A DNA stretch of 64,000 bases from an uncultured Acidobacteriota bacterium (GTDB lineage: Bacteria; Acidobacteriota; Thermoanaerobaculia; Multivoradales; UBA5704): the NCBI GenBank assembly GCA_963770895.1, contig CAVYRF010000002.1, forward strand, positions 5,280,001-5,344,000, in the 5' to 3' direction. Below are positions 8,276 to 49,121 of this stretch, piece by piece. The translations under genes and the position numbers were made by a program. Within the stretch, counting starts at the first letter, position 1, and each line of letters starts with the position of its first letter. Under the pieces are notes generated by a model. That model saw nothing but the letters and a program-made list of their open reading frames with translations, did not search any database and was not told the DNA's origin.

Positions 8276-8446
8276 ATGAAGAAGACCGCGAAGCGCCTGA
8301 TGCTGTGCCGCGAAACCGTGCAGACCCTGGCCAGTGGTGAGTTGCTGCATCGTGCAATGGGCGGCGTCAACACCGTCCCGACCTACTGCAAGGACTTCTG
8401 CTCGGAGCGGACCGTCTGCTCCGTGACCTGCGCCAAGAGCTGCTAG
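8276..8446 (+). CDS. putative RiPP (lanthipeptide-like) precursor, 56 aa
   Basis: AAGGAG RBS; MKKTAKRLMLCRETVQTLASGELLHRAMGG-VNTVPTYCKDFCSERTVCSVTCAKSC. Confidence 0.8.
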   Translation: MKKTAKRLMLCRETVQTLASGELLHRAMGGVNTVPTYCKDFCSERTVCSVTCAKSC

Positions 8447-8457
8447 CCGCTGGCCAG

Positions 8458-8473
8458 TGGCGCGGGGTTTGCT
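8458..8473 (+). promoter_or_regulatory. sigma54 (-24/-12) promoter upstream of GH15
   Basis: TGGCGC-GGGGT-TTGCT with canonical spacing, about 55 nt before the ATG. Confidence 0.6.
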
Positions 8474-8527
8474 AGGATCTGGGCGGGCGCCAGCTGCGCG
8501 CCGCCCATCGTCCACCTGCCCTGTCCG

Positions 8528-10492
8528 ATGCCACCCGATTCCGTCCCGACGTATGCGCCGATCCGCGACTATGCGCTGATCGGGGATTGCCGGACCGCGG
8601 CCCTGGTTTCGCGCTGGGGGTCGGTGGATTTTCTGTGTCTGCCGCGGTTCGACGGGGCCTCGGTGTTTGCGGCGCTGCTGGATGCGGAGGGCGGCGGCAG
8701 GTTTTTCGTGCGGCCGGCGGACGGGCCGTTCGAGGCGCGGCGGTGCTACGTGGACAGCACCAACGTGCTGCAGACCACCTTCCGCACCGCCGGCGGCGAG
8801 CTGCGGCTGACCGACGCGATGAGCGTTTCCGGGCACGACGAGCGGCGGGGGGAGCTGCTGCCCGAGCACGAGCTGCTGCGCTGTATCGAGTGCACCGCCG
8901 GCCAGGTCGCAGTCGAAGTGGGGTGCGATCCGCGTTTCGATTGGGGGCGCGCGGTGCCGATGCCGCGCGACCGGCGAGCCCTGGGTTTCATCTGGGAGCA
9001 CTCCGACCAGCTGCTGGTGTTGCGCAGCGAGGTACCGGTCGCGGCGGCGCCCGCCCGCTCCGGCGACGGCGGTGGCGGTGGGGGCGGTGGCGACGGGCGG
9101 CGCGCCGGTGTGTACGGCCGCGAGGTGCTGTCGGCGGGCGACCGGCGGTTTGTGTCGCTGGCTTCGATCAGCGGCGAGCCGGGCGTCTTCCTGCCGCTGG
9201 GGGAGGCCGCGGCGGCGCGGCTGGCGCGGTCGGTGCGGTGGTGGGAGCGATGGATCGCCGACTGCGTGTACTCCGGCCCGGCGCGGGCGGCGGTGGTGCG
9301 GAGCCTGCTGGCGCTCAAGCTGCTGACCTACTCGCCGTCGGGCGCGGTGATCGCTTCGCCCACCACGTCGCTGCCGGAAGAGATCGGCGGCGTGCGCAAT
9401 TGGGACTATCGCTACTGCTGGCTGCGCGACGCGTCGTGGACGCTGACCGCCTTTTTCGACCTGGGCTATCGCGACGAAGGACAGGCGTTCTTCTCGTGGT
9501 TGCTGTACGCCACGCGCATGCGCACGCCGGCACCCGCCAGCCACCGCTGGACGCCGCGGCTGCGCATCCTGAACGTGCTCTACGACGTGCATGGCGAAGT
9601 GCGGTTGCGCGAGCGCGAGCTGTCGTGGCTGTCCGGCTACGCGGGCTCGCGGCCGGTGCGGGTGGGCAACGGCGCCAGCGGCCAGCTGCAGCTGGACATC
9701 TTTGGCGAGGTGGTGCAGGCGGCGTTTGAGTTCGTCGAGCGCGGCGGCACTTTGGACGCCACCGAAGGCAGGCTGTTGCGGCAGCTCGGCGACACCGTGA
9801 GCCGGTTGTGGCGCGAGCCCGACCAGGGGATCTGGGAGAAGCGCTCGGGCCGCTTCCACCACACCTATTCCAAGGCGATGTGCTGGGTGGCGCTGGATCG
9901 CCTGCTGCTGCTCGGGGAGCGCGGCGCCATCCGCCTGCCGTCCAGGAGCGCGGCGGGCTTCCGGCGCGAGCGCGAGGCGCTGCGCGCCGCCATCGAGGGC
10001 GAAGGGTGGAGCGAGCGGTTGGGCAGCTACGTCGACGTGCTGGGCGGCGACGAGCTGGATGCCAGCCTGCTGCTGCTCGGTCTGCGCGGCTTTGACGACC
10101 CGGCGCGTTCGCCGCGCCTGCAGGCGACGCTCGCCCAGGTGCGCACCCGCCTGGAGAGCGGCGGCCTGCTGTACCGCTACCCGCCGGGGGACGACGGGAT
10201 TGCCGGCGGCGAGGCGGCGTTCGGCATCTGCAGCTTCTGGCTGGCGGAGTTTCTGGCGCGCATGGGCCGCGTCGCGGAAGCCCAGGCGCAGTTCGACCGC
10301 GTCGTCGGCCACGCCAACGACGTCGGCCTGTTCAGCGAAGAGATCGAGCCGGCAACGGGCGCGCACCTGGGCAACTTCCCGCAGGCCTTCACCCATGTCG
10401 GCTTGATCTCGGCGGCGCTCGCCATCGCCGCCGCCACGGACGGCGAAGTGGCGCGCGCGGCGCCGGACGCGGCAAAGGGGGTGCGCCTGTGA
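8528..10492 (+). CDS. glycoside hydrolase family 15 (trehalase/glucoamylase-like)
   Basis: [64 protein letters not shown]. Confidence 0.95.
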
Positions 10493-10971
10493 ACATCGGC
10501 AGCGTCCTGCTGGCAGGCTTTTGCGCCACGCTGGTGCTGACCAGCTGCCTGGCCGCCAGCCAGGGTTTGGGCCTGTCGCGGCTGTCGCTGCCGCTGGTTC
10601 TGGGCGCCGCCTTTTCGCCCGACCGCCAGCGTGCCAACCTGATCGGGTTTGTGCTGCACATGGTCAACGGCTGGCTGTTCGCGCTGGTCTACGCGCTGGC
10701 TTTCGAAAGCCTGCGCCGCGCCAACTGGTGGTTGGGCGCCGGCTTCGGCCTGGTGCAGGCGCTGTTCATCCTGACGGTGGTGATGCCGTTGCTGCCGGCG
10801 CTGCATCCGCGCATGGCCGGCGAGGACTACGGGCCCAGCCCCACGCGCCAGCTGGAACCGCCCGGCTTTCTGGCGCTCAACTACGGCCGCCACACGCCGC
10901 TCGCGACCCTGATCGCTCACCTCTTGTACGGCGCCATCCTGGGCGCCTTCTACACCCTGGCGCCGCGGTAG
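10489..10971 (+). CDS. small integral membrane protein
   Basis: About 4 hydrophobic helices, C-terminal [10 protein letters not shown]; GTGA overlap with GH15. Confidence 0.75.
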
Positions 10972-11024
10972 CCGGCGCGCCTCGGCCCGCGGCCAGCAGA
11001 CCCTACGGAAGTGGAGGATACCTG

Positions 11025-11942
11025 ATGACAGACAAGACCCATTCGCATACCGCCGCCCCTCACGCCGCCGCCCACCAGGGCGAACGGCCGATCGCGGCCA
11101 GCGGCACCATCCACCTGGGCGACCTGCAAGTCCATCGCCTGGGGTACGGCGCCATGCAGCTGACCGGCCGCGGCGTCTGGGGACCGCCCAAGGACCACGA
11201 CGAAGCCATCCGCGTGCTGCGGCGGGCGATCGACCTGGGGGTCGATCTGATCGATACAGCCGACTCGTATGGACCGTACGTCTCCGAGGAGCTGATCCGC
11301 GAGGCGCTGCATCCCTATCCGTCACACCTGTCGATCGCCACCAAGGCTGGCTTCGTGCGCACGGGGCCGGGGGACGGGTGGGTTCCCGTCGGCAGGCCGG
11401 AATACCTGCGGCAGGAATGTGAGATGAGCCTGCGCCGCCTGGGCGTCGAACGGCTCGACCTGTTCCAGCTGCATCGCATCGATCCCAAGGTGCCGGCGGA
11501 CGAGCAGTTCGGCTTGCTCAAGGAGCTGCGCGACGAGGGCAAGGTGCGCAACGTCGGCCTTTCCGAGGTGAACGTCGACGAGATCCTGGCGGCGCAGGCG
11601 GTGGTGCCGATCGTGTCGGTGCAGAACCGTTACAACTTGATCGATCGCCAACACGAAAAGGTGTTGGACCACTGCGCCGCGCACGGCATCGCCTTCATCC
11701 CCTGGTACCCCATCGCCAGCGGCGCGCTGGTCAAGCCGGGCGGGCCTCTGGACGAGATCGGCAAGGCCGTCGGCGCGACCCCGCCGCAGGTGGCGCTCGC
11801 CTGGCTGCTGCACCGCGCGCCGGTGATGCTGCCGATCCCCGGCACCTCGACCGTGGCCCACCTGGAAGAGAACTGCGCCGCCGCCACGATCAAGCTGACC
11901 GATGCCCAGGTCGCGAAGCTGAGCAGCGCCAAATTCTCCTAG
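11025..11942 (+). CDS. aldo/keto reductase
   Basis: [43 protein letters not shown]; GGAGG RBS. Confidence 0.95.
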
Positions 11943-12046
11943 TCTGGCGGCCAAACCGCCCATCGGTCGCGTCCGTCCGGAGCGCCGTGGCGGGGGTGCG
12001 CCTCTGCGAGCCCGCGGTGGACGCGGCGGTTTGCCTCTCGGCTTGC

Positions 12047-12061
12047 TGGCACCTTTCTTGC
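12047..12061 (+). promoter_or_regulatory. sigma54 promoter upstream of the DUF4142 gene
   Basis: TGGCAC-CTTTC-TTGC, consensus match. Confidence 0.7.
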
Positions 12062-12168
12062 CTTAGTACAAAGAGTGGGGGTGATCCGGGCCGGGCCCCC
12101 GCAGCGATGGAATGCGATGGGAAGTCCGCAAGCTCGCGGGCTTCGCCGGCCAAGGAAGGAGATGGATC

Positions 12169-12798
12169 ATGCGCAACTTGGTAAAACCTTTCCTTTTTGC
12201 TTCCGGGGTGGCGCTGGCCGCGGTCCTGGCGGCGGCTCCCTCTCTGGGGCAGGGGATGGCACACAATGCTCCCAGCCCCGGCGACTTGAACGCGCCGGCC
12301 AGCCCCGGCGACATGAACGCGCCGGCACGCATGGACCAGATGGACAACAACACCGCCAGCGCCCTGCACGGACGCGACCGCGACTTCGTGATGGACGCGG
12401 CGCGCGGCGGCCTGGCCGAGGTCGAGCTGGGCAAGCTGGCCGTGGCCAAGGGCACCAGCCCCGACGTCAAGCAGTTCGGCCAGCGGATGGTCGACGATCA
12501 CAGCAGGGCCAATGACAAGCTGCGCGAAGTGGCCCTTTCGAAGGGCGTGACGCTGCCGGCCGACATGGACAGGAAGAGCCGCGACGAATATCGCAAGCTG
12601 GACCAGCTGTCCGGCGAGCGGTTCGATCGCGCCTACGTCGACATGATGGTCAAAGACCACAAGAAGGACGTCGCCGACTTCGATCACGAGGTCAAGCGCG
12701 GCAACGATCCCGACGTGCAGCGCTTCGCTTCGATGACCCTGCCGACCCTCGAGGAGCATCTCACCATGGTCAAGGGTCTGCAGGGCATGCAGCACTGA
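12169..12798 (+). CDS. secreted DUF4142 (ferritin-like) protein
   Basis: Signal peptide; DRDFVMDAARGGLAEVELGKLA, FGQRMVDDH, FDRAYVDMMVKDH, TLPTLEEHL; short NAPxSPGD duplication. Confidence 0.9.
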   Translation: MRNLVKPFLFASGVALAAVLAAAPSLGQGMAHNAPSPGDLNAPASPGDMNAPARMDQMDNNTASALHGRDRDFVMDAARGGLAEVELGKLAVAKGTSPDVKQFGQRMVDDHSRANDKLREVALSKGVTLPADMDRKSRDEYRKLDQLSGERFDRAYVDMMVKDHKKDVADFDHEVKRGNDPDVQRFASMTLPTLEEHLTMVKGLQGMQH

Positions 12799-13063
12799 CG
12801 CCAGGCCACCAGGCTGGCTCGGCCACTGGCCGGCCGGCCAACGACCAACCCGCATTCGCCGAACCGGGCCGTGGGGCGCGCGCGGCAGATCTGAGCCCAA
12901 GTCTGCCGTGCGCCCTGCAGCCTCGCATAAGCGGCCTTCTCTCCTGCTCCGGGCACGAGTGATCCCGCTCTCCCGCCCCGTCACCCCCATTTCACGCGGG
13001 GTGCTTTTTCGTAGCACCACCCATCCCGGCTGTTGCGCGCCGCCTATATAGCTGCTGCAGGCG

Positions 13064-13369
13064 GTGCTCGAAGGCGCCAAGCGCCAGGATCTGCAGGGCG
13101 CCACCTATCTTTCGCTGGAGGCCTGGGATCTCGGTACCGCCAGGGTCGGCGACACGACCTACAAGCACCGCGGGAGCTTTGTCACCGACCAGAGCGGTGA
13201 GCCGGCCTTCCTGTTCGTGGTCGAAAACGCCAAGGATGGTTCAACCGTGACCTACTCCGGCAGGATCGGCGCAAAGGGCAGCAGCGTTTCCTATAAGAAG
13301 GTCGCTATGAGCGCGCCCAACGCCACGCCCGAGGTCAGCAACGGGTCCTGGAGCCAGATCGCGGATTGA
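13064..13369 (+). CDS. hypothetical protein, probably 5'-truncated
   Basis: Globular composition; GTG start without RBS; in-frame TAG at 13049-13051. Confidence 0.4.
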   Translation: MLEGAKRQDLQGATYLSLEAWDLGTARVGDTTYKHRGSFVTDQSGEPAFLFVVENAKDGSTVTYSGRIGAKGSSVSYKKVAMSAPNATPEVSNGSWSQIAD

Positions 13370-13567
13370 GGCGGCCGGCAACCGGCATGCCCAGCCGGAG
13401 GCAACCCCCGCGGGGTGGCGGTGGCGCAGCGGTCTCCAGGAGCGGCGACGGCTCGGGGGGGCAGGGGGTTGCCTCTGGATTGGAAGAGCATGATCCCAGT
13501 TCGGATCGACTCATCGAGCCAGCCATGCAGCGCGGCCGGGGCTGAGAATTACTCTCGCTCAAGTGCC

Positions 13568-13622
13568 AGTGTCCCGCCCGGTTCATTCGCATAGTCCAAG
13601 CGAATGAACCGGGCGGGACACT
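13568..13622. repeat. perfect 23-bp inverted repeat with 9-nt loop, matching the MITE ends at 50994-51156
   Basis: AGTGTCCCGCCCGGTTCATTCGC-atagtccaa-GCGAATGAACCGGGCGGGACACT. Confidence 0.9.
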
Positions 13623-13809
13623 TCCAATGCTCGTTAAATGACGGCGGAAGAGAAGGCGACCGGCGCCTTTCTCGGCATGATCGGCTGCCGAGAGATATAG
13701 GGCGCGGCGAGAGCGCGGAGGTGGAGTTGTTTTTCGGGCGGCGCCGGCTTCGTCGACCGGTGCCGGCCCGCCCCGCGAGGGGGCGGACCGGCGGGATGCC
13801 AGGGATGGG

Positions 13810-16800
13810 CTAGTTGCGGCCGAGGCGGAAGGCGCCGGCCAGGGCGAGCAGGGAGGCCAGGGCGATCAAGCCGAAGGTGCCGAGGGTCGGGACCTGCGCC
13901 GCCGGGTCGATGGGGACGTTGACGGCCTGGCTGGCCGAACAGCCGGTGGTGGTGGTGACGGTGACCTGGATCGACGCCGTGCCGGTTGTGCCGGTGGTGA
14001 AGGTGATGTGGTTGGTTCCGGCGCCACCGGTGATCGAGCCGCCGGTGATCGACCAGCTGTAGGTTGCGCCGACGCCGGCGTCGGCTACCGAGGCGCTGCC
14101 GGTGCTCTCCGGCGCCAGGCCTGTCGGCGCGGTGATGGTGGCATCGGTGATGGCGTCGCCGACGGTGCCCGTCTGGTTGCCGTAGTTGGCATTGGTGAAG
14201 GTCCAGGGATCGGCGGCGTAGGTGCCGACGGCGGAGTGGGTGGTGCCGCTCAGGACCAGGCCGGTGAGGGTTTCGCTGATCACCCCGGTAGCCGAGCCGG
14301 TCGCGGTATGGGGGGCGCCGTCGAAGGCCGCGCAGTAGGCGGTGACGCCGATGGTGGCCGTGGCCTTGTTGATGGTGAGCGCCGCGGCAGACTTTGCGGC
14401 GCCGGCACTGTTGTTGGCGTCACCGGCGGTGCTGGCCGCGACCAGGTAGGTGCCGGCGTTGGTGGGCGCCGTGCCGGTGGGGCCGTAGACGGTCGAGCCG
14501 GTGCCGCTGTAGTTCAAAACCAAGGTCAGGGATTCGCCGGCGCCGCCGGTGGCCGAGCCGCTGCCGCCCTGCGGGCTGCCGTTGTAGGTGAAGGTGCCGC
14601 CGTTGACGGCCACGACCGGGGTCGCCTTGTTGATGGTGAGCGCCGCGGCGGTGGGCGAGGTGCCGGCATTGTTGTTTTCGTCGCCGACGGTGCTGGCGGA
14701 GATGAGGTAGCTGCCGGCGTCGACGGGGGCGGAAGTCGTTGGTCCGTAGATCGTCGAGCCGGTGCCGCTGTAGGAGAGCGTCAGCGGCAGGGATTCGCCG
14801 GCGCCGCCGGTGGCGGAGCCGCTGCCGCCGTGCGGGTTGCCGTCGTAGGTGAAGGTGCCGCCGGTGGCAGCCACCGTCGAGGTCGCCTTGTTGATGGTGA
14901 GCGGCGCCGGGGTGGCGGCGGTGCCGGCGTTGTTGTTGCTGTCGCCGGTGGTGCTGGCCGACACCTGATAGGTGCCGGCGTCGGTGGGCGCCGTGCCGGA
15001 GGGACCGTAGGTGGTCGCGCCGGTGCCGGTGTAGGTGAGCGTCACCGGCAGCGTCTCGTTGAGCGCGCCCAAGGCGGTGCCGCTGCCGCCGTGCGGGTTG
15101 CCGTTGTAGGTGAAGGTGCCGCCGGCGTTGGTGAGCGTGGGATTGGCCTTGGCGATGGTGATGGTCTGGTTGTTCGACACCGGCGCCGAGTAGTTCGGGT
15201 CGTTCAGCGTCGCCGTCATGGTGTGGACGCCGGCGGTCATCTTGTTGGTCAGCGACGACTGCCAGAGGCCGAGGCCGCCGGCGGCCGCGGTGACGATGCT
15301 GAACGACTGCGGCGAGCCGAGAGGCGAGGCGCCGTCCAGGAACTGCATGGTGCCGGTGACTCCCGGCACCACCGTCCCGGCCAGGCCGAGGGCGCCGCTC
15401 ATGGTGAAGTTCTGGCCGTAGGTGCCGGCGTTTTTCGCGGTGAGCTGGATGGTGGTCGCCGTCTGGTTGAACGTCTGCGAGAACGGCGCCGAGGTGCTGG
15501 AATTGAACGTCGCGTTGCCGGCGTAGACCGCGGTGATCATGTGGACGCCGGCGAGCAGGCTGACGGTCGCCGCCGGACGGAAGGTGGCGGTGTGGGCGGC
15601 GCCGACCGTGCCGCTGCCCAGCAAAAGGTTGCCGTCGAAGAAGTTGACGGTGCCGCTGGTGACCGTGGTCGGGGTCATCGTCGCGGTAAAGGTCGGCCGG
15701 CCGCCGACCGCCGCGGGGTTGGTGTTGGACGTCACCGCGACGGAGGTGGCGGTGCCGCCCTGCACGGTCACCGTGACGGCGGTCGAGGTCAGCGGGCCGT
15801 AGTTGGTGTCGCCCGCCCAGCTGGCGACGATCGAGTGCGCGCCGGCGCTGGTGATCGCGGTGGTGGTCAGGACGGCCCGCGCCGAACCGACGGCCGCGCC
15901 GGGGGCCAGCGTGGCGGTGCCCAGAGCGGTCGCGGTCGTGTTGTCGGTGAAGGTCACCGTGCCGGTGGGGCTGAGGGTGCCAGGCCCCGCTCCCGACAGG
16001 CCGGTCAGCGTATAGGTGAGCTGCACCGAGCCGGCGGAGGAGATGTTGGTGGCGCTGGTGGCCAGCGCCTGGGTGACCGTGCCCTGGCCGATGATGACGG
16101 TGACCGTGGCCGCGGTGGCGGCGCCGAAGCTGGTGTCGCCCGAATAGGAGCCGCCCAGCACGTGGCTGCCGACGGTGAAAGGCGCGAAGTCCTGGAAGGT
16201 GTAGCCGCTGACGCACGAGGTCGTGGGGATGGCACCCGACAGGAAGTGCCCGACGCCGTTGGAGTTGAGCGTGACGGTCAGGAGCGGGTTGCCGTTGTCG
16301 GTGATCGCGACGGTGCCGGTCGGCGAGCCCTGCCCCGAAGCGCCGGCGACCGTGACGTCGGTCCACACGTAGCTGCCGTAGGTGAAGGCGGTCTGCGGCG
16401 TCTCAACGCAGGTGGTGCCGTTGAAGGCGTTCGGCGCGATGGTGACGGTGGCCGACTCCTGCGTCACGGTGAGGGTGAGCGGCGCCGAGGTGCTGGAGGA
16501 GAAGGTGCCGTCGCCGCTGTAGCGGGCGACCAGGCTGTAGGTGCCGGCCGGCAGGTTGGTGACGGCGATCGAGTAGTTGCCGCTGCCGTCCAGGGTCGCC
16601 AGCGGCACGGCGTTGAGGAACGCCCCGGTGTTGGGGTCCATGGGGTTGCCCAGGGCGCCGCTGCTGGGGATGAAGGTGACGGTGCCGGTCGGCGTGCCGG
16701 TGCCGGTTCCCGGAGTGACCGAGCCGCTCATCGTCACCGCCTGACCGTGAGTGATGCCGGTGGTCTGCGACGCGCCCAGGGTGATGTTGGTGCTGCGGAA

Positions 16801-18981: not shown

Positions 18982-19226
18982 GGCGGTCACCACCTTGGGT
19001 TCATGAAGGCCAGCCGTTGCGGCGGCGGGGGCGCTAAGGAAACGGCGCTCGACCACCGTCGGACATGACTTTCGTCGATTGGACGAAACCCCCCTCTGCT
19101 GGCTAGGCAGGGCGATTACACTGTACAAATGAACGCAGGGATCTTCTACCGGCCGTCACATCATGTCAAGGCCGCATGAACGTACTTGACGCATAGCCGT
19201 TCGCGCATGTGTCAAGGTCCGCGACC

Positions 19227-20915: not shown

Positions 20916-20966
20916 TCCCCTGGCCTGTCGGCTGCCCAGCGCTGACACGATGGCTAGTCTGGCTAA

Positions 20967-21590: not shown

Positions 21591-21676
21591 GGCGCGCGGG
21601 CTCCTTCGGCGGCGGTGGCTTGGGTCGCGCCGGGGTGTGGCTGCGGCGGCGCGACTTACGCTCTGTTTACGCCATG

Positions 21677-21705
21677 AGCATATGAGGAGAGGGGGCGGCA
21701 GTCAA
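21677..21705 (-). promoter_or_regulatory. sigma70-type promoter for the 20967-21590 gene
   Basis: TTGACT-17 nt-TATGCT on the minus strand. Confidence 0.55.
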
Positions 21706-34858: not shown

Positions 34859-35017
34859 TTAGCAGGCGCTACAGGAGCGGCTCTGGATCGTGGTCTGCAC
34901 GCACACGGGAGTATCGGTGACGCAGCAGGCGGAGCCGAAGCCTGCCGTCACGACGCCGGACTCCAGGCTGTGGATGGTTTCCCGCGAAAGCCGCAAACTC
35001 ATCTGATTCTTCTTCAT
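34859..35017 (-). CDS. putative RiPP (lanthipeptide-like) precursor, 52 aa, absent from the ORF track
   Basis: AAGGAG RBS; hand translation MKKNQMSLRLSRETIHSLESGVVTAG-FGSACCVTDTPVCVQTTIQSRSCSAC. Confidence 0.8.
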   Translation of the reverse strand: MKKNQMSLRLSRETIHSLESGVVTAGFGSACCVTDTPVCVQTTIQSRSCSAC

Positions 35018-35431
35018 TTTACATCTCCTTTTTTCAACTCAGGATCATTCCTGAGCAGGGTCCAAAGTGCCAGTTATTAATACGTACGGGGTTGTAAATT
35101 CGTTTGGTTGTGGTAATCATCATGTTTTATGTAGACGATCAATATGCCATGACTATACCACCATCTGAGAACACAGAAAACCATCCAGGTGCGGGAGCGG
35201 CCAGGAGCGTCCGGGGCCGGTGCCTGGGGCGGCCGGGGCGCATCCAGGAGCGGCGCCTGAGGTGCGGGCCGGGCGCGTCCTAGACCGGCGCCTGGGGGGC
35301 GGGCCGGCGCGGCATGGATCGGCGACCGGCGCCGGCCGGGCCAGACCCGCAAAAGCAGGGGGCTACCGCTGCGTGCGCTGGGCCGGATCGTGTGGCGCGG
35401 GAGGCGGCGGTGCGGCTAAGATGCCGGCACT

Positions 35432-35884: not shown

Positions 35885-35906
35885 ACGGGCGGCGCCGTTC
35901 AGCGGT

Positions 35907-40266: not shown

Positions 40267-41216
40267 CAGTCGTGAAGCTCCTCAAGCCAGCGTTCGGCGT
40301 CCAGGGCGGCGCGGCAGCCGGTGCCGGCGGCGGTGATCGCCTGGCGGTAGATCGGGTCCATGGCGTCACCGGCGGCGAAGACGCCGGGCAGGTTGGTCCT
40401 GCTGGTCGGCTCCTGGACGCGGATGTAGCCCATGTCGTTCATGTCCACCTGGCCGGCGAACAGGGCGGTGTTGGGTTGGTGGCCGATGGCGTAAAACACC
40501 CCCTGCGTGGGGTATTCGCTATCCAGGCCGGTCTTTTTGTTGTGCGTCTTGACCGCGGTGACGCCGTGATCGCGGGTACCCACGATGTCGGTCACCACGG
40601 TGTTCCAGATCCAGGCGATCTTGGAGTTGGCGAAGGCGCGATCCTGCATGATCTTGGAGGCGCGCAGCTCGTGGCGGCGATGGATCACGGTGACCTTGCT
40701 GGCGAACTTGGTCAGGTAGATGGCTTCTTCCATCGCCGAGTCGCCGCCGCCCAGGATGACCACTTCTTTATCACGGAAGAAGAAGCCGTCGCAGGTGGCG
40801 CACGCCGAAAGGCCGTAGCCCATGAGCTCGCGTTCCGCCGGCAGGCCGGCCAGCTTGGCGGTGGCGCCGGTGGCGACGATCACCGCGTCGGAGCGATAGG
40901 TGGTCTCATCGGTGCGGATGGTGAACGGGCGCTTGTGCAGGTCGATCTCCACCGCGGCGTCGAACTTCACCTGGGCGCCGAAGCGGCGCGCCTGCTCGCG
41001 CATGCGATCGACCAGCTCGGGCCCCAGGATGCCCTCGGGAAAGCCGGGGAAGTTTTCCACGTCGGTGGTGATGGTCAGCTGGCCGCCGGGCTGGTTGCCC
41101 TCCAGCACCAAGGGAGCCAGGTCGGCGCGGGCGGTGTACAGGGCTGCGGTCAGGCCGGCCGGCCCGGAGCCGAGGATGACGACCCGGTGGTAGGAGCCCT
41201 GATCGGGGTTGGACAT
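40266..41216 (-). CDS. trxB: thioredoxin-disulfide reductase
   Basis: [39 protein letters not shown]. Confidence 0.97.
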
Positions 41217-41454
41217 CGAGCGGAAATCTCCTCTGGGTGATCGCGGACGACGGTTCGGCAGGCGGAGCGAGTATACCAGCGCGGCTGGCGCGGTCGGCTG
41301 GGTTGGCTCGGGAACGCTGCGGGCGGAACCGCTGCTGACCGGTGCAACGGCCTCGCGGCAGCGGGAATTCCGCGATCGAACGGGTAGCCGGGGCTGGGCG
41401 GGCCCGGCAGGGGTGGGGTGTGGGGGTAGAATCGCCGCGGTAGAGGGGGGGACG

Positions 41455-42834
41455 ATGGCGATCAGCATTTTCGACTTGTTCACGATTGGGATTGGGCCTT
41501 CCAGCTCGCACACGGTGGGACCGATGCGCGCGGCGCGGCGGTTTGCCGGGCGGCTGGAGCGCGACGGGGCGCTGGCGGCGGTGGCGCGGGTGCAGGTGGA
41601 GCTGTTCGGCTCGCTGGCGATGACCGGCAAGGGCCACGGCACCGACCGGGCGGTGCTGATGGGCCTGGAGGGGGAGGTGCCCGAAGAGGTCGATCCGGAG
41701 TGGATGCCGCGGCGGGTGGAGGAGATCCGCGCCAGCGGGCGGCTGCGCCTGCTGGGGGCGCATGAGATCGCCTTCGCGGAGAAGGCGGACCTGGTGTTCA
41801 ACCGCCGGCAGCTGCTGCCGCTGCACTCCAACGGCATGCGCTTCACCGCCTTCGACGCGGCCCAGGAGGTGCTGGCCGAGCGGATCTACTACTCGGTCGG
41901 CGGCGGCTTCGTGGTCAACGAAGAGACCGCGGGGCAGGACCGCCTGGTGGCCGACGAAACCCCGCTGCCGCTGCCGTTCAAGAGCGGCGCCGAGCTGCTG
42001 GCGGTGTGTCGCCGCGAGCGCAAGGCCATCTGGCAGGTGATGCTGGCCAACGAGGAGAGCTGGCGCGAGGAGCCGGAGGTGCGCGCCGGTCTGCTGCGCA
42101 TCTGGGAGGCCATGCAGCGCTGCGTCGAGCGCGGCTGCCGCCAGACCGGGGTACTGCCGGGCAGCCTGAAGGTGCCGCGCCGGGCGCCCAAGCTCTATGC
42201 GGAGCTGACGATGCGGCCCGAAGAGTCGCTGCGCGACCCGCTGAGCATCCTCGATTGGGTGAACCTGTACGCCCTGGCGGTCAACGAGGAAAACGCCGCC
42301 GGCGGCCGGGTGGTGACGGCGCCGACCAACGGCGCCGCCGGCATCGTGCCGGCCGTGCTCCACTACTATCGCCGGTTCGCGCCCGGCGGCGGCGACGAAG
42401 GCGTGGTGCGCTTCCTGCTGACCGCCGGCGCCATCGGCATCCTCTATAAGGAGAACGCCTCCATCTCCGGCGCCGAAGTCGGCTGCCAGGGCGAAGTGGG
42501 CGTCGCCTGCTCGATGGCGGCGGCCGGCCTGGTGGCGGCGATGGGCGGCACCGCGGCGCAGGTCGAAAATGCCGCGGAGATCGGCATGGAGCACAACCTG
42601 GGCCTGACCTGCGACCCGGTCGGCGGCCTGGTGCAGATCCCCTGCATCGAGCGCAACGCCATGGGCTCGGTCAAGGCCATCAACGCCGCCCGCATCGCCC
42701 TGCGCGGCGACGGCTCGCACAAGGTCTCGCTCGATCGCGTCATCAAGACCATGCGAGAAACCGGCGCCGACATGAAAACCAAATACAAGGAAACCTCCCG
42801 CGGCGGCCTGGCCATCAACGTCATCGAGTGCTGA
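41455..42834 (+). CDS. sdaA: L-serine ammonia-lyase (Fe-S)
   Basis: [49 protein letters not shown]. Confidence 0.97.
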
Positions 42835-42958
42835 GCGGCCCCCGCCGAGGCGGAGTCGCGCCGATCTGGGCCGCGCTGCGCGGATGGGGGAAGCAAATGG
42901 GGGCTACGGCTGGACCGGCTGCAGGCGCTGATATGCTCCGACCGGTCAGGAGGTCGCA

Positions 42959-44152
42959 ATGGAGCCCGTGATCCGAAGCCTCGTGCTCAAGAGGTTTCGC
43001 AGCGTACCGTCCGAAGCAGTCGACCTTGTGAACCCCACTTTCCTGGTGGGCCAGAACGGCTCGGGAAAGAGCAACTTCGTCGATGCCTTTGCCTTTTTGG
43101 CCGAGGCAATGGGCACTCCGCTGCAGGCAGTGTTCGATAATCGAGGTGGCATCTCGGCGGTGCGCAACCGGACGTCCGGCAGGGGCTATCCCCCCAACCT
43201 CGGCCTCGCAGTGCGATTCGGTGCGATCAACGGCGAGATCGCCAGCGGTAACTACGCCTTCGAGGTGCGGGCGTTGCCTAACTACGCCTTCGAGGTCGTG
43301 CGGGAGCAGTGCTCCATCTCTTTCAAATCTGGCCAAAGAAGCTGGTTCGACCGCAAGGGGATGGATTTCAAGTCGAATGTCCCCGGATTGGCCCCATCTC
43401 TCGATCCTGCATCGCTGGGTTTGCCGGTGGTCGGCGGTCACGCAAGCTTTGCGCCGATTCTGCGCACCCTGTCCGCGATGCGGGTCTATTCGATCGAGCC
43501 GGCACAGCTCAGGGAGATGCAGGAGGCCGATAGCGGCCTGGGCCTCAAGCCGGATGGCAGCAATGCAGCCAGTGTTCTGCAGGAGATCGCCCGCCGTGCC
43601 AACGGCGACATCGATCGTATCGGCGAGATCCTGGCCACGATCGTTCCCAATACGACGAACGTGGGAACCATCAAGCACGGCAAGAAGCTATCGCTGGAAT
43701 TCACCCAGGAGTGGGGACCGAACAAGCGCCTCAAATTCGAAGCGTTCAGCATGTCGGATGGGACGCTCCGTGCCCTCGGCCTGTTGACCGCCGTCTTCCA
43801 GAACCCGGTGCCGTCCTTGATGGTTATCGAGGAGCCGGAGGCGAGGATCCATCCGGGTGCGTTGGGGGCGGTGCTGGATGTCCTGCGCACTGCCAGCCAA
43901 AGGGTGCAGATCGTGGTGACGACGAACAGCCCGGAGGTCCTGGACGCGAAGTGGATCGGCGATTCAAATCTGCGGATCGTGACCTGGCAGGAGGGGGCGT
44001 CGCACGTTACGCGGCTTTCCGAGCCCTCTCGTCAGGCGCTGCTGCAGCACCTCATGGGTGCAGGAGAGCTCCTGCGCTCGAACGCGCTCACGGCGCCGCC
44101 CTTTTTTCACGGCACCATGGCCCAGGACGAGCTGTTTGAGGCGCTGTCTTGA
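42959..44152 (+). CDS. AAA_21/AbiEii-like ABC-fold ATPase
   Basis: Walker A GQNGSGKS, MSDGT, Walker B IEEPE, H-loop reads TTNSP; visibly lower GC than the flanks. Confidence 0.85.
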   Translation: MEPVIRSLVLKRFRSVPSEAVDLVNPTFLVGQNGSGKSNFVDAFAFLAEAMGTPLQAVFDNRGGISAVRNRTSGRGYPPNLGLAVRFGAINGEIASGNYAFEVRALPNYAFEVVREQCSISFKSGQRSWFDRKGMDFKSNVPGLAPSLDPASLGLPVVGGHASFAPILRTLSAMRVYSIEPAQLREMQEADSGLGLKPDGSNAASVLQEIARRANGDIDRIGEILATIVPNTTNVGTIKHGKKLSLEFTQEWGPNKRLKFEAFSMSDGTLRALGLLTAVFQNPVPSLMVIEEPEARIHPGALGAVLDVLRTASQRVQIVVTTNSPEVLDAKWIGDSNLRIVTWQEGASHVTRLSEPSRQALLQHLMGAGELLRSNALTAPPFFHGTMAQDELFEALS

Positions 44153-44660
44153 GGGTGCAGCCCATCGTGGAGGGACACGGAGAAGTCGCTGCCGTTCCCG
44201 AATTGCTCCGCCGCCTGAGCCATGAGGCCGGCATTTTCGTCGAAGTCTGCCGCCCGATCCGACGGAAGCGATCAGAGCTGGTTGGCGAAACCTCGCTGCG
44301 CCGCTCGATTCGACTCGCCCTGCTGCAAGACTGCGACGCGATCCTGGTGATCTTCGACGGCGATGACGACTGCCCCAAGACCATCGGGCCGCAAGCTCAG
44401 GCGTGGGCACAAGCGGAAGCGCGCCAGGTCCCTTGCGCTGTCGTCATCGCTCATCGAGAGTACGAGGCGTGGTTTCTGGGGGCGCTCGAATCCCTCCGCG
44501 GCCTGCGCGGGGTCCGCTCCGATGCGGTGCCGCCGCCGCGGCCCACCGCCGCTGCCGATCCTTCCGCCGCCTGGTCAAGGCCTTTGGCTCGTTGCTGGAG
44601 GTGAGCGGGGCGGCCCTTCCGCCATGGCCACCCCCGTCATGGCAGAGCGATCGGGGCTAA
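44149..44660 (+). pseudogene. DUF4276-family (TOPRIM-like) protein, apparently deleted/frameshifted near 44540
   Basis: IVEGHGE, FDGDDDCP, REYEAWFL; the C-terminal AHRRCRSFRRLVKAF lies in a different frame ending at 44660. Confidence 0.75.
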
Positions 44661-44679
44661 GGGGCAGTGCCTGGCGGGA

Positions 44680-45615
44680 TCAGGTGGCGACATCGCCGGC
44701 GGCGGTGGCGCGGGTGCCGAGCTTGTTGAAGCCCAGGCGGGTGAAGAGGGCGGTGGCGGCGGCTTCGTCGGCGCCGCGGTAGGTCAGGCGGGCCAGGTCG
44801 GTGCGGACGGGGGCGTCGGTGGCCAAGGTGGCCAGGGTGCGCGACAGGAAGGCGGTGGCGCGGGCGTCGCGGAGCTTGCCGTAGAGGGATTTGGCGCCGC
44901 GCAGGCGGCTTTGGGGGAGCTCTTCGAGGCGGCGGTAGAGGTCGTCCAGGGTGCCGAAGGCGGCGAGCAGCTCGGCGGCGGTCTTGCGGCCGATGCCGGC
45001 GACGCCGGGGATGTTGTCGACGGGATCGCCGGCCAGGGCCAGCAGGTCGACGATCTGGTCGGGGCGGACGCCGAAGGTGGCGGCGACCTCGGCCGGGCCG
45101 TAGCGCTGCTGTTTGGCGAAGTCGTAGAGGGTGACGCCGGCGGCGACCAGCTGGGCCAGGTCCTTGTCGCCCGAGACCACGACCGCCTGGTGGCCGGCGG
45201 CCGTCGCCTGGCGGCAGAGGGTGGCGATCAGGTCGTCGGCTTCGTAGCGGTCGTCGATAAAGGTGGCGGCGCCCAGGGCCGCAGCGGCGCGGCGGCAGTC
45301 GTCGAGCTGCGCCACCAGCTCGGGCGGTGGCGCGTCGCGATGGGCCTTGTAGGCGGGGTAGAGCTGGTTGCGGTAGAAGCTGCCGTTCAAGTCGCGGTCG
45401 AACGCCACGCCCAGGTGCGTCGGACGCTCGTCGGCGATCAGCTTGAGCAGGAACGACGCGAACCCGTACACCGCCCCCGCCCGCGCGCCGTCCGGGCTCT
45501 TGATCGACGAGGGAATCGAAAAGTGAGCGCGGAAGACGTAGGGGCTGGCGTCGACGAGGTACACGGTGGCGATGCCGGCCGCGCCATCCGGGCTGGCGCC
45601 GGTGGAGGTCGGCAT
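44680..45615 (-). CDS. stand-alone 5'-3' exonuclease / flap endonuclease
   Basis: YLVDASPYVFRA, YPAYKAHR, EADDLIATL, SGDKDLAQ, GDPVDNIPGVAGIG.KTA. Confidence 0.9.
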   Translation of the reverse strand: MPTSTGASPDGAAGIATVYLVDASPYVFRAHFSIPSSIKSPDGARAGAVYGFASFLLKLIADERPTHLGVAFDRDLNGSFYRNQLYPAYKAHRDAPPPELVAQLDDCRRAAAALGAATFIDDRYEADDLIATLCRQATAAGHQAVVVSGDKDLAQLVAAGVTLYDFAKQQRYGPAEVAATFGVRPDQIVDLLALAGDPVDNIPGVAGIGRKTAAELLAAFGTLDDLYRRLEELPQSRLRGAKSLYGKLRDARATAFLSRTLATLATDAPVRTDLARLTYRGADEAAATALFTRLGFNKLGTRATAAGDVAT

Positions 45616-45647
45616 GGGCGGCGGGGGGGCGGGGCGGTCCGTCGCGG

Positions 45648-46469
45648 TCAGTCCAGGAAGAGATCGGGGATCAGCGGCTGGCCCGGCTTGATGGCGTAGC
45701 GGTCGAAGTCGGTCGTGCCGGCTTCGCGCAGCACCTCTTCGTCGAGCAGGAAGCGGCCGGTGGCGGCGCGGCTGTCGCGGGTGAGCATGGCGTGGGCGGC
45801 GTCGGCCATGATCTCGGGTTTGCGGCAGTTGTCGGGCGGCACCATGTCGCCGAGCGCGCCCAGGGCGGCGGTGAGGATGACGGTGCGCGGCCACAGGGCG
45901 TTGACGGCGACCCCCTGCTCGCGCAGCTCCTCGGCCAGGCCCAGGACCGTCAGGCTCATGCCGTACTTGGACATGGTGTAGGCCAGGTGCGCCGCGAACC
46001 ACCTGGGGTTCAGATTGAGCGGCGGCGCCACGGTGAGGATGTGGGGATTGGCGGCCTTCAGCAGGTAGGGGACCGCCGCCTGCGAGCAGGCGAAGGTGGC
46101 GCGCCCGTTGACCCCCCACATGAGGTCGAAGCGCTTCATCGGCGTCGCCATGGTGGGGGTCAGGCCGATCGCGCTGGCGTTGTTGACCAGGATGTCGATG
46201 CCGCCGAAGCGGTCCGCCGCCTGCGCCATCGCCGCGGCGATCCCCGCGTCGTCGCGCACGTCCAGCACCACCGGCAGCGCCTTGCCGCCCGCCGCCTCCA
46301 TCTCGGCGGCGGCGCTGAACACGGTGCCGGGCAGCTTCGGATGCGGCTCCGCCGTCTTGGCCGCGATGACGACGTTGGCGCCGTCGGCCGCCGCGCGCAG
46401 GGCGATCGCCTTGCCGATGCCGCGGCTGGCGCCGGTGACAAACAGGGTCTTGCCGTGTAGGGATGCCAT
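45648..46469 (-). CDS. SDR oxidoreductase (HSDL2-like)
   Basis: TGASRGIG, PHPKLPGT, NNASAI, YTMSK, NALWP. Confidence 0.9.
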   Translation of the reverse strand: MASLHGKTLFVTGASRGIGKAIALRAAADGANVVIAAKTAEPHPKLPGTVFSAAAEMEAAGGKALPVVLDVRDDAGIAAAMAQAADRFGGIDILVNNASAIGLTPTMATPMKRFDLMWGVNGRATFACSQAAVPYLLKAANPHILTVAPPLNLNPRWFAAHLAYTMSKYGMSLTVLGLAEELREQGVAVNALWPRTVILTAALGALGDMVPPDNCRKPEIMADAAHAMLTRDSRAATGRFLLDEEVLREAGTTDFDRYAIKPGQPLIPDLFLD

Positions 46470-46658
46470 GGCCGGGGATCTTAGCAGGTCGCCCCACCCC
46501 GACCGCCGCATCCTGAGCCCGGTCCCCGCGTGAGATCTGCCGGGTTCGCCAGGGTCGGGAGCGCCATACTGGAAAGTTGCATATGCCAATGTCTCTGTTG
46601 CGCAAGCGCTACATTGATAGTACGGTGATCGGCTGGACAAAAAGGCGCTCCGCCCATC

Positions 46659-47750
46659 ATGGCTCTACTTCGCTTCTCGGCTCGGCCGGCAGGGTCTGCC
46701 GGTATCGTTTTGGCCGCGGCCCTGGCGCTGACCTTGCCAGGTGGTGCGGCGGCGTCCGCTGCCGACACTTTCGCCAGCGGCTTCTGCCAGGGGGCCCCTA
46801 CCAAGCTCTTTACCGTGCCGCCCTGCCGGGTCTACGACAGCCGGACAGGCGATCCTCTCGCTGCCGGCGTCAACCTGCTGCAGGTGGCTGGCCGATGCGG
46901 GATTCCTACCGATGCCACCGCGGTGTCGGCAAACCTCACCGTCGTCGGGCCGCGGGCCGCGGGCTCCCTGACGGTCTATGCCGGTGACGCCGTCCAGCCG
47001 CCGACCGCCACGATCGATTTCAACCCCGGCCAGATTCGCGCCAACAATGCCGTGGTGCAGTTGGCCGGCGACGGCTCGGGCACCGTCGCGGTCTATTTTG
47101 CCGCCGACGGTCCAGGCACCGCCGCCGTCGACCTGGTCGTGGACGTGAATGGCTACTTCGCGCGCGGCCCGGTCGTGGTCAGCATGGCGCCGCCGGCCGG
47201 TGGCCAGTCCGGCGGCACCCTGGTGACGGCCAGCGGCACCTTTCGCGATCCCTTCAGCACCCAGGTTCAATTCAACCACCAGGCACCGGTGCAGCCAACA
47301 GGTTGGACCGCCAGCATGCTGTGGGTGACCACGCCGCCTTACAGCGGCATCTTCCCGACCGGGCCCTGTGGCGCGGCCGGCTTCGTCGGCACCATCAACC
47401 TGCCGGTCAGCGTCGACGTCACGGTGACCGATACGATCACCGGGTGCTCCTCCACCTTGACCGGCGGCTTCTCCTACCTGCCGACGGACGCCAGCTGCCA
47501 CCTGCCGCCGCCGCCCGTGGCGGGATTTACCGTGCTCACGTCCAGCGCCAATGACGTCGCCAGCTTCGCCGACACGTCGACGGGCACGCCGACCAGCTGG
47601 TTGTGGGACTTCGGCGACGCCCGCACGAGCAACCTGCAGAACCCGATCCACGACTACATAGTGCCCGGCAGTTTCATGGCGACGCTGACCGCCTGCAACC
47701 CGGCCGGTTGCTCCATGACCGGCCAGTTGGTGGTCGTTCCGGGCTCGTAG
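46659..47750 (+). CDS. secreted protein with PCR(V)xD(S/T)R domain, IPT/TIG and PKD domains
   Basis: Signal peptide; TVPPCRVYDSR...CGIP.DATAVSANLTVV...VDVNGYF; TSWLWDFGD. Confidence 0.85.
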   Translation: MALLRFSARPAGSAGIVLAAALALTLPGGAAASAADTFASGFCQGAPTKLFTVPPCRVYDSRTGDPLAAGVNLLQVAGRCGIPTDATAVSANLTVVGPRAAGSLTVYAGDAVQPPTATIDFNPGQIRANNAVVQLAGDGSGTVAVYFAADGPGTAAVDLVVDVNGYFARGPVVVSMAPPAGGQSGGTLVTASGTFRDPFSTQVQFNHQAPVQPTGWTASMLWVTTPPYSGIFPTGPCGAAGFVGTINLPVSVDVTVTDTITGCSSTLTGGFSYLPTDASCHLPPPPVAGFTVLTSSANDVASFADTSTGTPTSWLWDFGDARTSNLQNPIHDYIVPGSFMATLTACNPAGCSMTGQLVVVPGS

Positions 47751-48802
47751 CCAGCAACGCGGGTCAGCGGCGGGGTTTCCGCTTCCGCATCGTCCTGGGC
47801 GCCGGCATCGTCGGTCGGGGCCGCCGCGGTCGAGGCGTCGTCGTTTGCTGCATCGTCCGCACTGTCCGTGCATCCGGCGCCGTCGTTGGCGGCTGCGGCC
47901 TCCGGCTGGTCTTCGTTCTGCGGCGCATTGACCGTCACTTCCAGCGTGGCGCAGAAGTTGACGGGCGTGCCGTCGCGCAATACCGGCTCAAAGGTGAGGC
48001 CGGTCAGGACGGCGTTGACGAATTCTGGCGAACCCTGCTGGCGGGTCACCATCGTCTGGGTCACCTCTCCGGAGGAGTCGAGCACGACCTTGGCTTCGAC
48101 CACTCCCGGCCCGGACGGCAGCTCGGATCGCGCCATGGTGAACTGACTTGGGGCTTGCGAATCGCTGATGTAGGGGGCGTCAGGTGCGAAGGCGTGGATC
48201 AGGTCGTTGACCCTGTCGTTCGAATCGTTGCGGGAGGCCACGTCGTCGGGGGTGTCGCCATCCTTGGTCCCTGACAGGTACCACATCGCCAGGCACAGGC
48301 TCAGGCCGCCGTGGTCCCGCGAGCCGAGACTCTGCATCTCCTGCGCGGCATCGCCGTCACGATAGGGGCTCTGGGCCAGGAGGGTCGCGATCAGCCCGGC
48401 CTCGGCTTGCTCCGCCGCGCTGCCGGTGTCGCCCGCCGTATCGCGGAAGACCTGCTCGGCGTCGCGCAGATCGGCGGCCGCGGCTGCGGCGCCGCCGCCG
48501 GCACCCTGTGTGGCGCGGCGGAGCAGGGCAAAGCCAAGGTCCACCGCGGCGTCAGCCTGTGCCGCCGAGCCCGGCGTCGCTTCGGCATAGGCCAGCCGCG
48601 CCGCGGCCGCGTCGTCGAGATCCTGGCCGCCGGCGGCAGCGGCAGCCAGCAGGGCCAGGCTAAAGACGGCGGCTGCGACGGTGGGGGCTGAAGCAGCGTG
48701 GTGACGCGGTGGGCGGCGAGCATCTGGCTTCCTTCCTGGCCGCGTCGTTGCAGCTCTGGCGTGGCCGGAGACCAAGAATTGCTTCTTTTGCGACTCTATC
48801 AC
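47654..48802 (-). CDS. secreted protein with helical N-terminus, TonB-C-like domain and acidic tail
   Basis: Hydrophobic signal; GVVEAKVVLDSSGEV...FEPVLRDGTPV; 3' end overlaps the convergent gene. Confidence 0.6.
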   Translation of the reverse strand: MIESQKKQFLVSGHARAATTRPGRKPDARRPPRHHAASAPTVAAAVFSLALLAAAAAGGQDLDDAAAARLAYAEATPGSAAQADAAVDLGFALLRRATQGAGGGAAAAAADLRDAEQVFRDTAGDTGSAAEQAEAGLIATLLAQSPYRDGDAAQEMQSLGSRDHGGLSLCLAMWYLSGTKDGDTPDDVASRNDSNDRVNDLIHAFAPDAPYISDSQAPSQFTMARSELPSGPGVVEAKVVLDSSGEVTQTMVTRQQGSPEFVNAVLTGLTFEPVLRDGTPVNFCATLEVTVNAPQNEDQPEAAAANDGAGCTDSADDAANDDASTAAAPTDDAGAQDDAEAETPPLTRVAGYEPGTTTNWPVMEQPAGLQAVSVAMKLPGTM

Positions 48803-48956
48803 GTCAATCTACCGATTCTGCAATCACGATGTTATCCAGGGTTGTTTCTGCGACCCCGTAGCCGGATCAAAGTGGAGGGCTGTAAGGACTGCCGGCGCCC
48901 CCAGGGCGAGTCGCCATGGCAGCGCCGGCTTTGGGACGTGTGATCCGCGGCTTGTC

Positions 48957-49121
48957 TTACCAGGGGTTCGGCTCTGGCTCTTTCTTCGCCCAGGGGTTCG
49001 GCTCGGGCTCGAAAAAGATCGGCAGGGACGTGAGCCGTGCCGGGCGCACCCCACCGTGGGCGCCGGTCAGCTGGCGGCCGGCGATCTCGGCCAGTTGCCG
49101 TGAAGCGGTGATCTTCTTCAT
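48957..49121 (-). CDS. putative peptide precursor with GG leader and tandem EPEPNPW repeat, 54 aa, absent from the ORF track
   Basis: AAGGAG RBS; hand translation MKKITASRQLAEIAGRQLTGAHGG-VRPARLTSLPIFFEPEPNPWAKKEPEPNPW. Confidence 0.75.
   Translation of the reverse strand: MKKITASRQLAEIAGRQLTGAHGGVRPARLTSLPIFFEPEPNPWAKKEPEPNPW

Follow-up and report, generated by a model that had tools for sequence, protein, structure and literature searches.

What matures a precursor peptide whose gene has no modification enzyme anywhere near it? The question is raised by a 64,000-nucleotide stretch of DNA from an uncultured acidobacterium of the class Thermoanaerobaculia, hereafter the window (C2:5280001-5344000, on contig C2 of a genome that we label G000; 8.16 Mb, 70.7% G+C, three contigs). 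There, an earlier sequence-only reading had singled out three isolated small open reading frames (ORFs) as a set of precursors of peptides that the ribosome makes and that are modified after translation (RiPPs), and had proposed that they belong to a genome-wide family matured by distant enzymes, in the manner of the prochlorosins. We conclude that two of the three, ORF1 and ORF2, are probably (probability about 0.6) members of a family of ~97 dispersed class I lanthipeptide precursor (LanA) genes whose products are matured by an unclustered pathway of LanB, LanC and a peptidase-containing ATP-binding cassette (ABC) transporter (PCAT).

The three ORFs were re-read from the sequence, and their coordinates, strands and translations are correct. 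ORF1 (8276..8446, + strand) encodes a LanA-like precursor of 56 residues, in which a 30-residue leader ending in GG, MKKTAKRLMLCRETVQTL...GG (pattern MKK..LMLCRETVQTL..GG), precedes 26 core residues with 5 Cys and 7 Ser/Thr, the core itself ending in Cys. ORF2 (34859..35017, - strand; 52 residues) is built alike, its leader, MKKNQMSLRLSRETIHSL...AG (pattern MKK..LRLSRETIHSL..AG), ending in AG before a core, also of 26 residues, that has 5 Cys and 8 Ser/Thr and likewise ends in Cys; the common leader and the core composition are thus as claimed. Each gene has the Shine-Dalgarno word AAGGAG 5 nt upstream of its ATG (8265..8270 on the + strand for ORF1; 35025..35030 on the - strand for ORF2), and the intergenic stretch 5' of the ORF2 Shine-Dalgarno is unusually A+T-rich. 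A leader hidden Markov model (HMM) matches ORF1 at E=5e-10 and ORF2 at E=7e-10, and a separate leader alignment, A1, matches them at 48.7 bits (G000:C2:5288276-5288383) and 49.1 bits, respectively. The set of three therefore shrinks to two. ORF3 (48957..49121, - strand; 54 aa) is an intact small ORF with a Shine-Dalgarno and a GG at residues 23-24, and its tail carries EPEPNPW twice; it is missed by the leader HMM, has a different leader and contains no Cys, which rules it out as a family member. It is a singleton, with no paralogue in the genome and no homologue among 40 related genomes. The further claim that the 64 kb hold no RiPP enzyme stands for the six Pfam families tested, the LanB, LanC, radical SAM and C39 types included: PF05147, PF04738, PF14028, PF13575, PF03412 and PF04055 have no whole-genome match inside the window (YcaO was not among the families searched).

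How large is the family to which ORF1 and ORF2 belong? The leader pattern put forward in the sequence-only reading retrieves 18 small ORFs from the genome and none from the reversed genome; a relaxed pattern gives 83 matches, 68 of them small ORFs with Cys-rich tails, against 5 in the reversed genome. An HMM built from the leaders so collected matches 99 stop-to-stop frames at E<0.1, again with none in the reversed genome. After start-codon choice there are ~97 intact genes of 42-75 codons, with about four more rows representing start-less fragments, and an independent search with alignment A1 (31 leader sequences) finds 94 matches. The common leader of ORF1 and ORF2 is far above chance expectation, and the predicted genome-wide family, with cores that are nearly all distinct, exists. 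The leader consensus runs for ~30 residues, MKK..L.L.RETL..L....L..AAGG, and the core for ~26. In an automated and approximate division into leader and core, GG or AG closes 82 of 93 leaders. Cores are 16.3% Cys, 15.0% Thr and 8.4% Ser, compared with 0.6% Cys in leaders; Ser plus Thr equal or outnumber Cys in 91 of the 93 cores, and 71 have a Cys within the last three residues. Leaders share a median pairwise identity of 0.41 and cores one of 0.24, and the 93 cores form 92 groups at 60% identity.

These copies look like real genes. Start codons are ATG in 91 and GTG in 6, a Shine-Dalgarno-like word precedes 95 of the 97, and the median G+C content at third codon positions (GC3), at 0.83, is a gene-like value in this genome. 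The Arg-Glu-Thr of the leader is near-invariant and yet is written in many ways (Glu as GAA in 45 copies and GAG in 44; Thr as ACC in 54, ACG in 27, ACT in 5 and ACA in 2; Arg with all six codons). It is the peptide and not the DNA that is conserved, because these residues use many synonymous codons, and such variation indicates purifying selection on the peptide.

To which class does the leader belong? Neither the Nif11 nor the NHLP leader model (TIGR03793, TIGR03798) matches any of the three ORFs, and the whole genome contains no NHLP leader and a single Nif11 leader (C1:1793310), which is unrelated to the family. A profile search of 1.84 billion cluster representatives returned 7016 proteins at E<=0.001, nearly all of 40-90 residues and matched at the N-terminus. 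In a collection of 5.8 billion proteins, two matches bear the NCBI name 'class I lanthipeptide [Thermoanaerobaculia bacterium]'; these two and one more (P0012, P0013 and P0101) reach 26-29 bits with the NCBIfam model NF038153 (lant_leader_L1a), above its cut-off of 22, and the scores of several G000 copies are 11-18 bits. A single leader profile unites ORF1 and ORF2 (E about 1e-10), the copies that pass NF038153 and precursors that lie inside LanC-LanB operons. Judged by leader homology, the family is a divergent branch of this curated class I leader type. ORF1 and ORF2 themselves have the leader homology and the Ser/Thr-Cys core of a class I LanA; they do not reach the NF038153 cut-off and have no LanB or LanC beside them, an adjacency that is found for homologous precursors in relatives.

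Where, then, are the enzymes? A search of the genome for lanthipeptide synthetases located a full LanB with a LanC, two LanM and further LanC, mostly far from the precursors. Lant_dehydr_N (PF04738) has two matches. One is the full LanB (C2:5180050-5183583; 1177 aa), which carries Lant_dehydr_N (553 bits) and Lant_dehydr_C (241 bits) in one gene and is convergent to a LanC, LanC_B (C2:5178405-5180015); the other, in a protein of 925 aa, is to the N-domain alone, and a separate protein has a lone C-domain. The remaining Lan genes are the two LanM, two LanC-containing proteins of ~1030 aa and eight further stand-alone LanC-like genes. Homologues of LanB at 59-73% identity all come from soil metagenome-assembled genomes (MAGs) that bear the label Thermoanaerobaculia or Acidobacteriota. 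Beside LanB in G000, no small ORF of the family was found. For the 96 copies that share their contig with some Lan enzyme, the nearest such enzyme lies within 1 kb in 5 cases (always a stand-alone LanC), within 5 kb in 6 and within 20 kb in 13, and more than 50 kb away in 75; the median distance is 197 kb, and LanB is 105 kb from ORF1 and 131 kb from ORF2. Far from lacking further leader-sharing ORFs and RiPP enzymes, an absence that would have spoken against the proposal, the genome holds ~97 copies together with Lan enzymes. Maturation by distant enzymes is borne out to the extent that such enzymes exist; the likeness to ProcM is not, as the enzyme evidence is of class I and not of ProcM type.

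Related genomes provide the missing operons. The leader profile matches 25 of 41 genomes compared, 20 of 24 in the same family, with 1-94 copies each; these genomes are kin and not independent, so their co-occurrence patterns are no statistical test. In one relative, PCAT, a precursor, LanC and LanB follow one another in that order on one strand (G027:C11), and at a second locus of the same genome PCAT is followed by six precursors and then LanC and LanB, again on one strand (G027:C7). A third locus, G030:C127, has a precursor, LanC and LanB plus a PCAT. At each of the three loci, these genes fit into ~10 kb. More broadly, a leader-profile match occurs in 30 of 80 named LanB-homologue loci (flanks of up to 8 kb), among them loci of Archangium, Cystobacter, Myxococcus, Kofleriaceae, Holophagales, Acidobacteriaceae, a Chthoniobacteraceae MAG and Actinomycetota MAGs, so that LanB-linked matches span Acidobacteriota, Myxococcota, Verrucomicrobiota and Actinomycetota. 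In the control, 1 of 20 LanM loci of relatives (~6 kb on each side) has such a match, and three show WKDP-type precursors instead. A strong LanB (>470 bits) is present in 21 of the 25 precursor-bearing genomes, with LanB split or fragmentary in G013, G020 and G024, and in 1 of the 16 that lack the family. Gene content and these operons lead us to infer strongly that maturation occurs in trans, and the evidence points to class I enzymes (one LanB and several LanC) over a ProcM-type LanM.

The cyclases themselves add to the case for a dehydratase acting at a distance. Thirteen LanC-like domains were aligned, with motifs assigned after NisC. LanC_B, LanC3, LanC5, LanC6, LanC7 and LanC10 retain the His motif together with both zinc motifs, WC and CH(G), and three Cys are found in LanC12 and in one of the ~1030-aa proteins; about seven stand-alone LanC, including LanC_B beside LanB, keep the zinc-binding residues. 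LanC genes directly adjoin five family members. In G000, intact LanC and precursor form cassettes with no adjacent dehydratase gene at C1:1011293 (LanC10), C1:1568272 (LanC12) and C2:3323047 (LanC3 and LanC7), and among the rows listed for relatives there are at least nine such pairs, with LanB distant or on another contig. Since a cyclase has nothing to act on without dehydro-residues, these cassettes argue for the involvement of a dehydratase in trans. A TPR-repeat Ser/Thr kinase and a sigma-54 activator with an FHA domain (C1:1561510-1567048) directly adjoin the LanC12 cassette.

Two LanC-like genes are of another kind. In LanC8 and LanC9, neither zinc Cys motif survives (WC has become WA, and CH has become GF or GY), and each of the zinc-less genes (C1:1579906-1581435 and C2:2707932-2709301) adjoins a peptide with a 'KETLLPL' variant of the family leader and a core that has no Cys and carries His/Thr/Val motifs. 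A third pair of a zinc-less LanC-like gene and a Cys-free peptide occurs in a relative (G005:C436). Such pairs may represent a different, undescribed modification.

Export can be assigned with some discrimination. Leaders that end in GG or AG and exporters of the C39-ABC type, the two elements of a double-glycine/PCAT system, are both present in the genome. One PCAT (C2:2970304-2972412; full-length TIGR03796 at 659 bits, C39 at 107 bits) adjoins an HlyD-like adaptor and LanC5, and lies 2.3 Mb from ORF1. It is of the same subtype as the PCAT of the G027 and G030 operons, and full-length proteins in its score band (~556-660 bits) occur in 23 of the 25 precursor-bearing genomes versus 2 of the 16 others. 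The other system, a TIGR03796/TIGR03797 peptidase-ABC pair (C1:1782768-1787964; 1073 and 919 bits; PCAT at C1:1782768-1784978), was downgraded as the family exporter: a Nif11-type precursor lies 5 kb away, for which reason the pair probably has its own substrate. The surrounding segment (C1:1782768-1793516), which contains a TolC-like gene, the pair and a cyclic-nucleotide-binding transport-associated protein, with the Nif11-leader ORF ~5 kb downstream, looks like a separate Nif11-type RiPP export system.

The pathway that we propose would run as follows. The single full-length LanB would bind the common leader and dehydrate Ser and Thr of the core by means of glutamyl-tRNA, a requirement of class I dehydratases according to PMC9993889. 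One of the about seven stand-alone LanC with zinc motifs, at least three of which sit in two-gene cassettes with a precursor of their own, would then add Cys thiols and so form the thioether rings, and the PCAT at C2:2970304-2972412 would cut the leader after GG or AG and export the product. The pathway would be fully unclustered and would be to class I what the prochlorosin arrangement is to class II. When ORF1 was modelled in complex with LanB residues 1-845, the score was 0.53, compared with 0.01 for the best control. Of 80 solved complexes, 58 attain the mark that it passes, as do 2 of 110 mismatched pairs; at scores of 0.60 or less, however, those that attain it are 7 of the 80 solved complexes and both mismatches. 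Runs agree in at least 29% of contacts, the partner has a pLDDT of 39-42, and the pass may reflect memory, because a similar complex is solved: that of NisB with the nisin leader, reportedly. The model lends weak backing to the proposed pathway.

How fixed is this repertoire? Searched against the 5.8 billion proteins, ORF1 and ORF2 each retrieve themselves alone. The GH15 gene beside ORF1 has orthologues in all nine same-genus genomes (72-80% DNA identity), and none of the six same-genus loci compared has a family member at the syntenic position, where homology ends at the GH15 start. The number of leader-profile copies within the genus ranges from 1 (G002) to 94 (G000). With no close homologues and with empty syntenic loci, the repertoire is therefore species-specific. 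A wider proposal for soil Thermoanaerobaculia is tentative, and we would put it at somewhat less than even odds: a single tRNA-dependent dehydratase would serve ~100 species-specific precursors scattered over the genome, the ring pattern would be set by a panel of stand-alone cyclases, some of them paired in two-gene cassettes with a precursor of their own, and the zinc-less LanC-like proteins with their Cys-free peptides would form a side branch.

Several observations weigh against a class I pathway for ORF1 and ORF2. Neither ORF (nor ORF3) has any Pfam or NCBIfam match, even at E<=10, and just three of the ~97 G000 copies pass NF038153 (C2:2396513, C2:5020187 and C1:2212676), with five places at E<=0.01. 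A relative with 69 precursors in an 84% complete genome, G005, has a weaker LanB match alone (228 bits). The two ~1030-aa proteins are LanKC/LanL-like, and in some relatives the favoured PCAT subtype adjoins LanM genes as well. According to PMC13083261, a LanM and a GMC oxidase of Thermoanaerobaculia mature a Cys-rich precursor. Finally, the best-scoring member of the family (C2:4304002, with 9 Cys) lies 3.5 kb from LanM2 (C2:4307702-4310992), on the opposite strand, and class II processing of some copies may occur. Should one LanM, most likely LanM2 with the ABC exporter that follows it, then be credited with maturing the whole family in trans, as ProcM does? LanM is present in 18 of the 25 precursor-bearing genomes, which would suit this explanation, but it was not found in G018 (35 precursors, 100% complete), G022 (35), G008 (28), G027 (7) or G040 (3), and family precursors occupy 1 of 20 LanM loci as opposed to 30 of 80 LanB loci of relatives. 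Moreover, LanM1 has its own precursor with a WKDP-type leader, the family leader is neither Nif11 nor NHLP, and both LanM carry C..CH (WC..CHG) zinc motifs, not the three Cys zinc ligands that we take to mark the cyclase domain of a ProcM-type generalist LanM. We consider class II maturation of the whole family quite unlikely.

A common leader need not mean a common fate, and it could serve as an address label for several unrelated tailoring systems (LanB/LanC, LanKC-like proteins, thiazole-making GMC oxidases, zinc-less LanC-like proteins and perhaps enzymes linked to nonribosomal peptide synthetases, NRPSs), the 97 genes then comprising several product classes. The two Cys-free KETLLPL-leader peptides beside zinc-less LanC-like genes fit this idea, as do GMC-oxidoreductase-like ORFs at C2:2150007-2150846 (~3 kb from member C2:2153424) and C2:4969289-4969558 (~1 kb from C2:4970417), eight members within 4 kb of NRPS genes and three members 13-14 kb from a LanKC-like gene. 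Together, however, fewer than 20 of the 97 copies have any such context, NRPS genes are so abundant that their adjacency is weakly above chance, and nearly all cores (91 of 93) have a Ser/Thr and Cys make-up of the lanthipeptide type; we regard the idea as unlikely. A different doubt concerns function. The empty syntenic loci of ORF1 in six sister genomes, the lack of close homologues of ORF1 and ORF2 and a copy number of 1-94 within one genus would also be expected if most orphan copies were silent relics of a decaying or mobile family, with just the enzyme-adjacent ones functional. That is very unlikely given 97 copies with intact starts, Shine-Dalgarno words and stop-free cores against ~4 start-less fragments, the synonymous variation at conserved leader residues and the gene-like GC3. 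Least probable of all to us is that the orphan copies encode unmodified or merely disulfide-bonded double-glycine peptides, bacteriocin-like or signalling, that are exported by PCAT and never carry lanthionine. The GG/AG leader ends, the two PCAT systems and HTH_31+TPR regulators flanking three members, which recall peptide-sensing regulators, would accord with such peptides; the same leader nevertheless occurs inside LanC-LanB operons of relatives, LanC genes stand directly beside five members, and disulfides alone leave the enrichment of Ser/Thr alongside Cys unexplained.

How does the class I family that we favour compare with known systems? In layout it resembles the prochlorosins (ProcA/ProcM) and SyncA/SyncM: scattered precursors, a conserved double-glycine-type leader, diverse cores, few and distant enzymes, and strain-specific repertoires. 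The dispersed precursors with a conserved leader are shared; the Nif11/NHLP leader and a LanM with three Cys are not. Where prochlorosins and the SyncM products depend on one bifunctional LanM, gene content here suggests a tRNA-dependent LanB with several LanC, and, in further contrast, LanM is dispensable across relatives and shows no linkage to the precursors. The arrangement is thus prochlorosin-like in layout, but the defining prochlorosin features fail, and by leader and enzymes the family is placed with class I. In picocyanobacteria-type systems, precursors are likewise described as lying far from their LanM (PMC7268733), and PMC9872173 reports up to 79 SyncA substrates. The ~97 copies in this genome exceed the prochlorosin and SyncA numbers quoted from those sources, and the host is a soil acidobacterium and not a marine picocyanobacterium.

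Gram-negative class I lanthipeptides offer the nearer biochemical parallel. Ped15.1/15.2, the thalassomonasins, the viridisins (VdsA1-3/VdsCB) and the pinensins have GG leaders and 1-3 precursors in compact LanBC operons, according to PMC9680876. By that published description, they share with the present family a separate LanB and LanC, a conserved GG leader and cores rich in Cys, Ser and Thr, and the operons of G027 and G030 match their layout; what sets G000 apart from the clusters described there is that ~90 of its precursors are orphans, that none adjoins LanB and that it has multiple cyclases. The NF038153 leader type is that of the relatives of the family, although ORF1 and ORF2 give no match to the model itself. 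There are also the tha/the clusters (ThaA, ThaM, ThaO) of Thermoanaerobaculia, each of which PMC13083261 (2026) describes as a compact unit of LanM and a thiazole-forming GMC oxidase acting on a Cys-rich precursor. They have in common with our family the bacterial class, a Cys-rich precursor of lanthipeptide type and, in view of the two members mentioned above, GMC-oxidase-like genes nearby; likened by published description, they differ in being compact and class II, and LanM2 of G000 has no GMC neighbour. In the literature searched (subscription journals and supplementary files lay outside it), we came across no report of class I precursors forming a dispersed family in Acidobacteriota.

For class II, large natural libraries are known that owe their existence to substrate-tolerant RiPP enzymes (ProcM, SyncM), and peptide engineering makes use of them. 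A class I equivalent, if our reading is true, would provide a substrate-tolerant LanB and a set of cyclases that, through the cores they pair with, could show how ring topology is decided; it would also be a combinatorial system of 'one dehydratase, many cyclases' and the largest lanthipeptide repertoire per genome among the published numbers quoted from the sources above. The 7016 cluster representatives with this leader imply thousands of unexplored cores. With just three of ~97 copies recognised by NF038153, the library is almost invisible to routine annotation, and because cluster-based mining and this curated leader model miss almost all copies, the ribosomal peptide count of soil Acidobacteriota is probably underestimated.

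By Pfam, the genes immediately around the three ORFs encode an ABC exporter, the GH15 hydrolase, a beta-lactamase-fold protein, a GNAT protein, an M20 peptidase and a protein without any Pfam match. The ABC exporter (5461..7533, - strand; ABC_membrane and ABC_tran, no C39 domain) is divergent from ORF1 and is a possible accessory export or immunity gene. It shares a blastp cluster with the exporter beside LanM2 and with four other exporters near family members, and a 95%-identical copy in G005:C436 adjoins a LanC-like gene and a family-type peptide. Between this exporter and ORF1, positions 7941-8088 hold a stretch of ~115-150 bp with dozens of matches at 72-85% identity across all ten genus genomes; several of these overlap the 5' ends of ADOP-type MacB/FtsX permease genes, and the stretch looks like a remnant of such a gene. 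An ADOP-type MacB_PCD/FtsX permease is also encoded at 980-3424 of the window. Downstream of ORF3, a gene for 382 aa (47654-48802) has no Pfam match and no homologue in the 40 relatives. Two further family precursors (75 and 56 aa) lie in tandem at C2:5269261-5269828, 10-11 kb before the window start.

Genome-wide, a few neighbourhood and regulatory leads were noted. An ADOP-type MacB/FtsX permease is near 9 of the 97 members, in a genome with 127 MacB_PCD matches, and 8 of the 97 have an NRPS gene within 4 kb, some at 90-530 bp; adjacency to either is near chance or weakly above it, because both kinds of gene are abundant. NRPS genes (for example, at C2:4068172-4095366 and C2:2177993-2205325) are indeed extremely plentiful: condensation domains have at least 113 matches, and open frames reach 12,745 aa. 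A common sigma-54 promoter is not supported: 1 of 97 upstream regions passed a scan in which the index of the -12 GC was mis-set. A GGCAC hexamer precedes 10-12 of the 97 copies, where ~2.5 are expected, and as a lead only this suggests that a subset of the precursors may be under sigma-54 control. The HTH_31+TPR regulators that stand beside family members are found at C2:4268194-4271921, C2:3750528-3756581 and C2:1042152-1043645.

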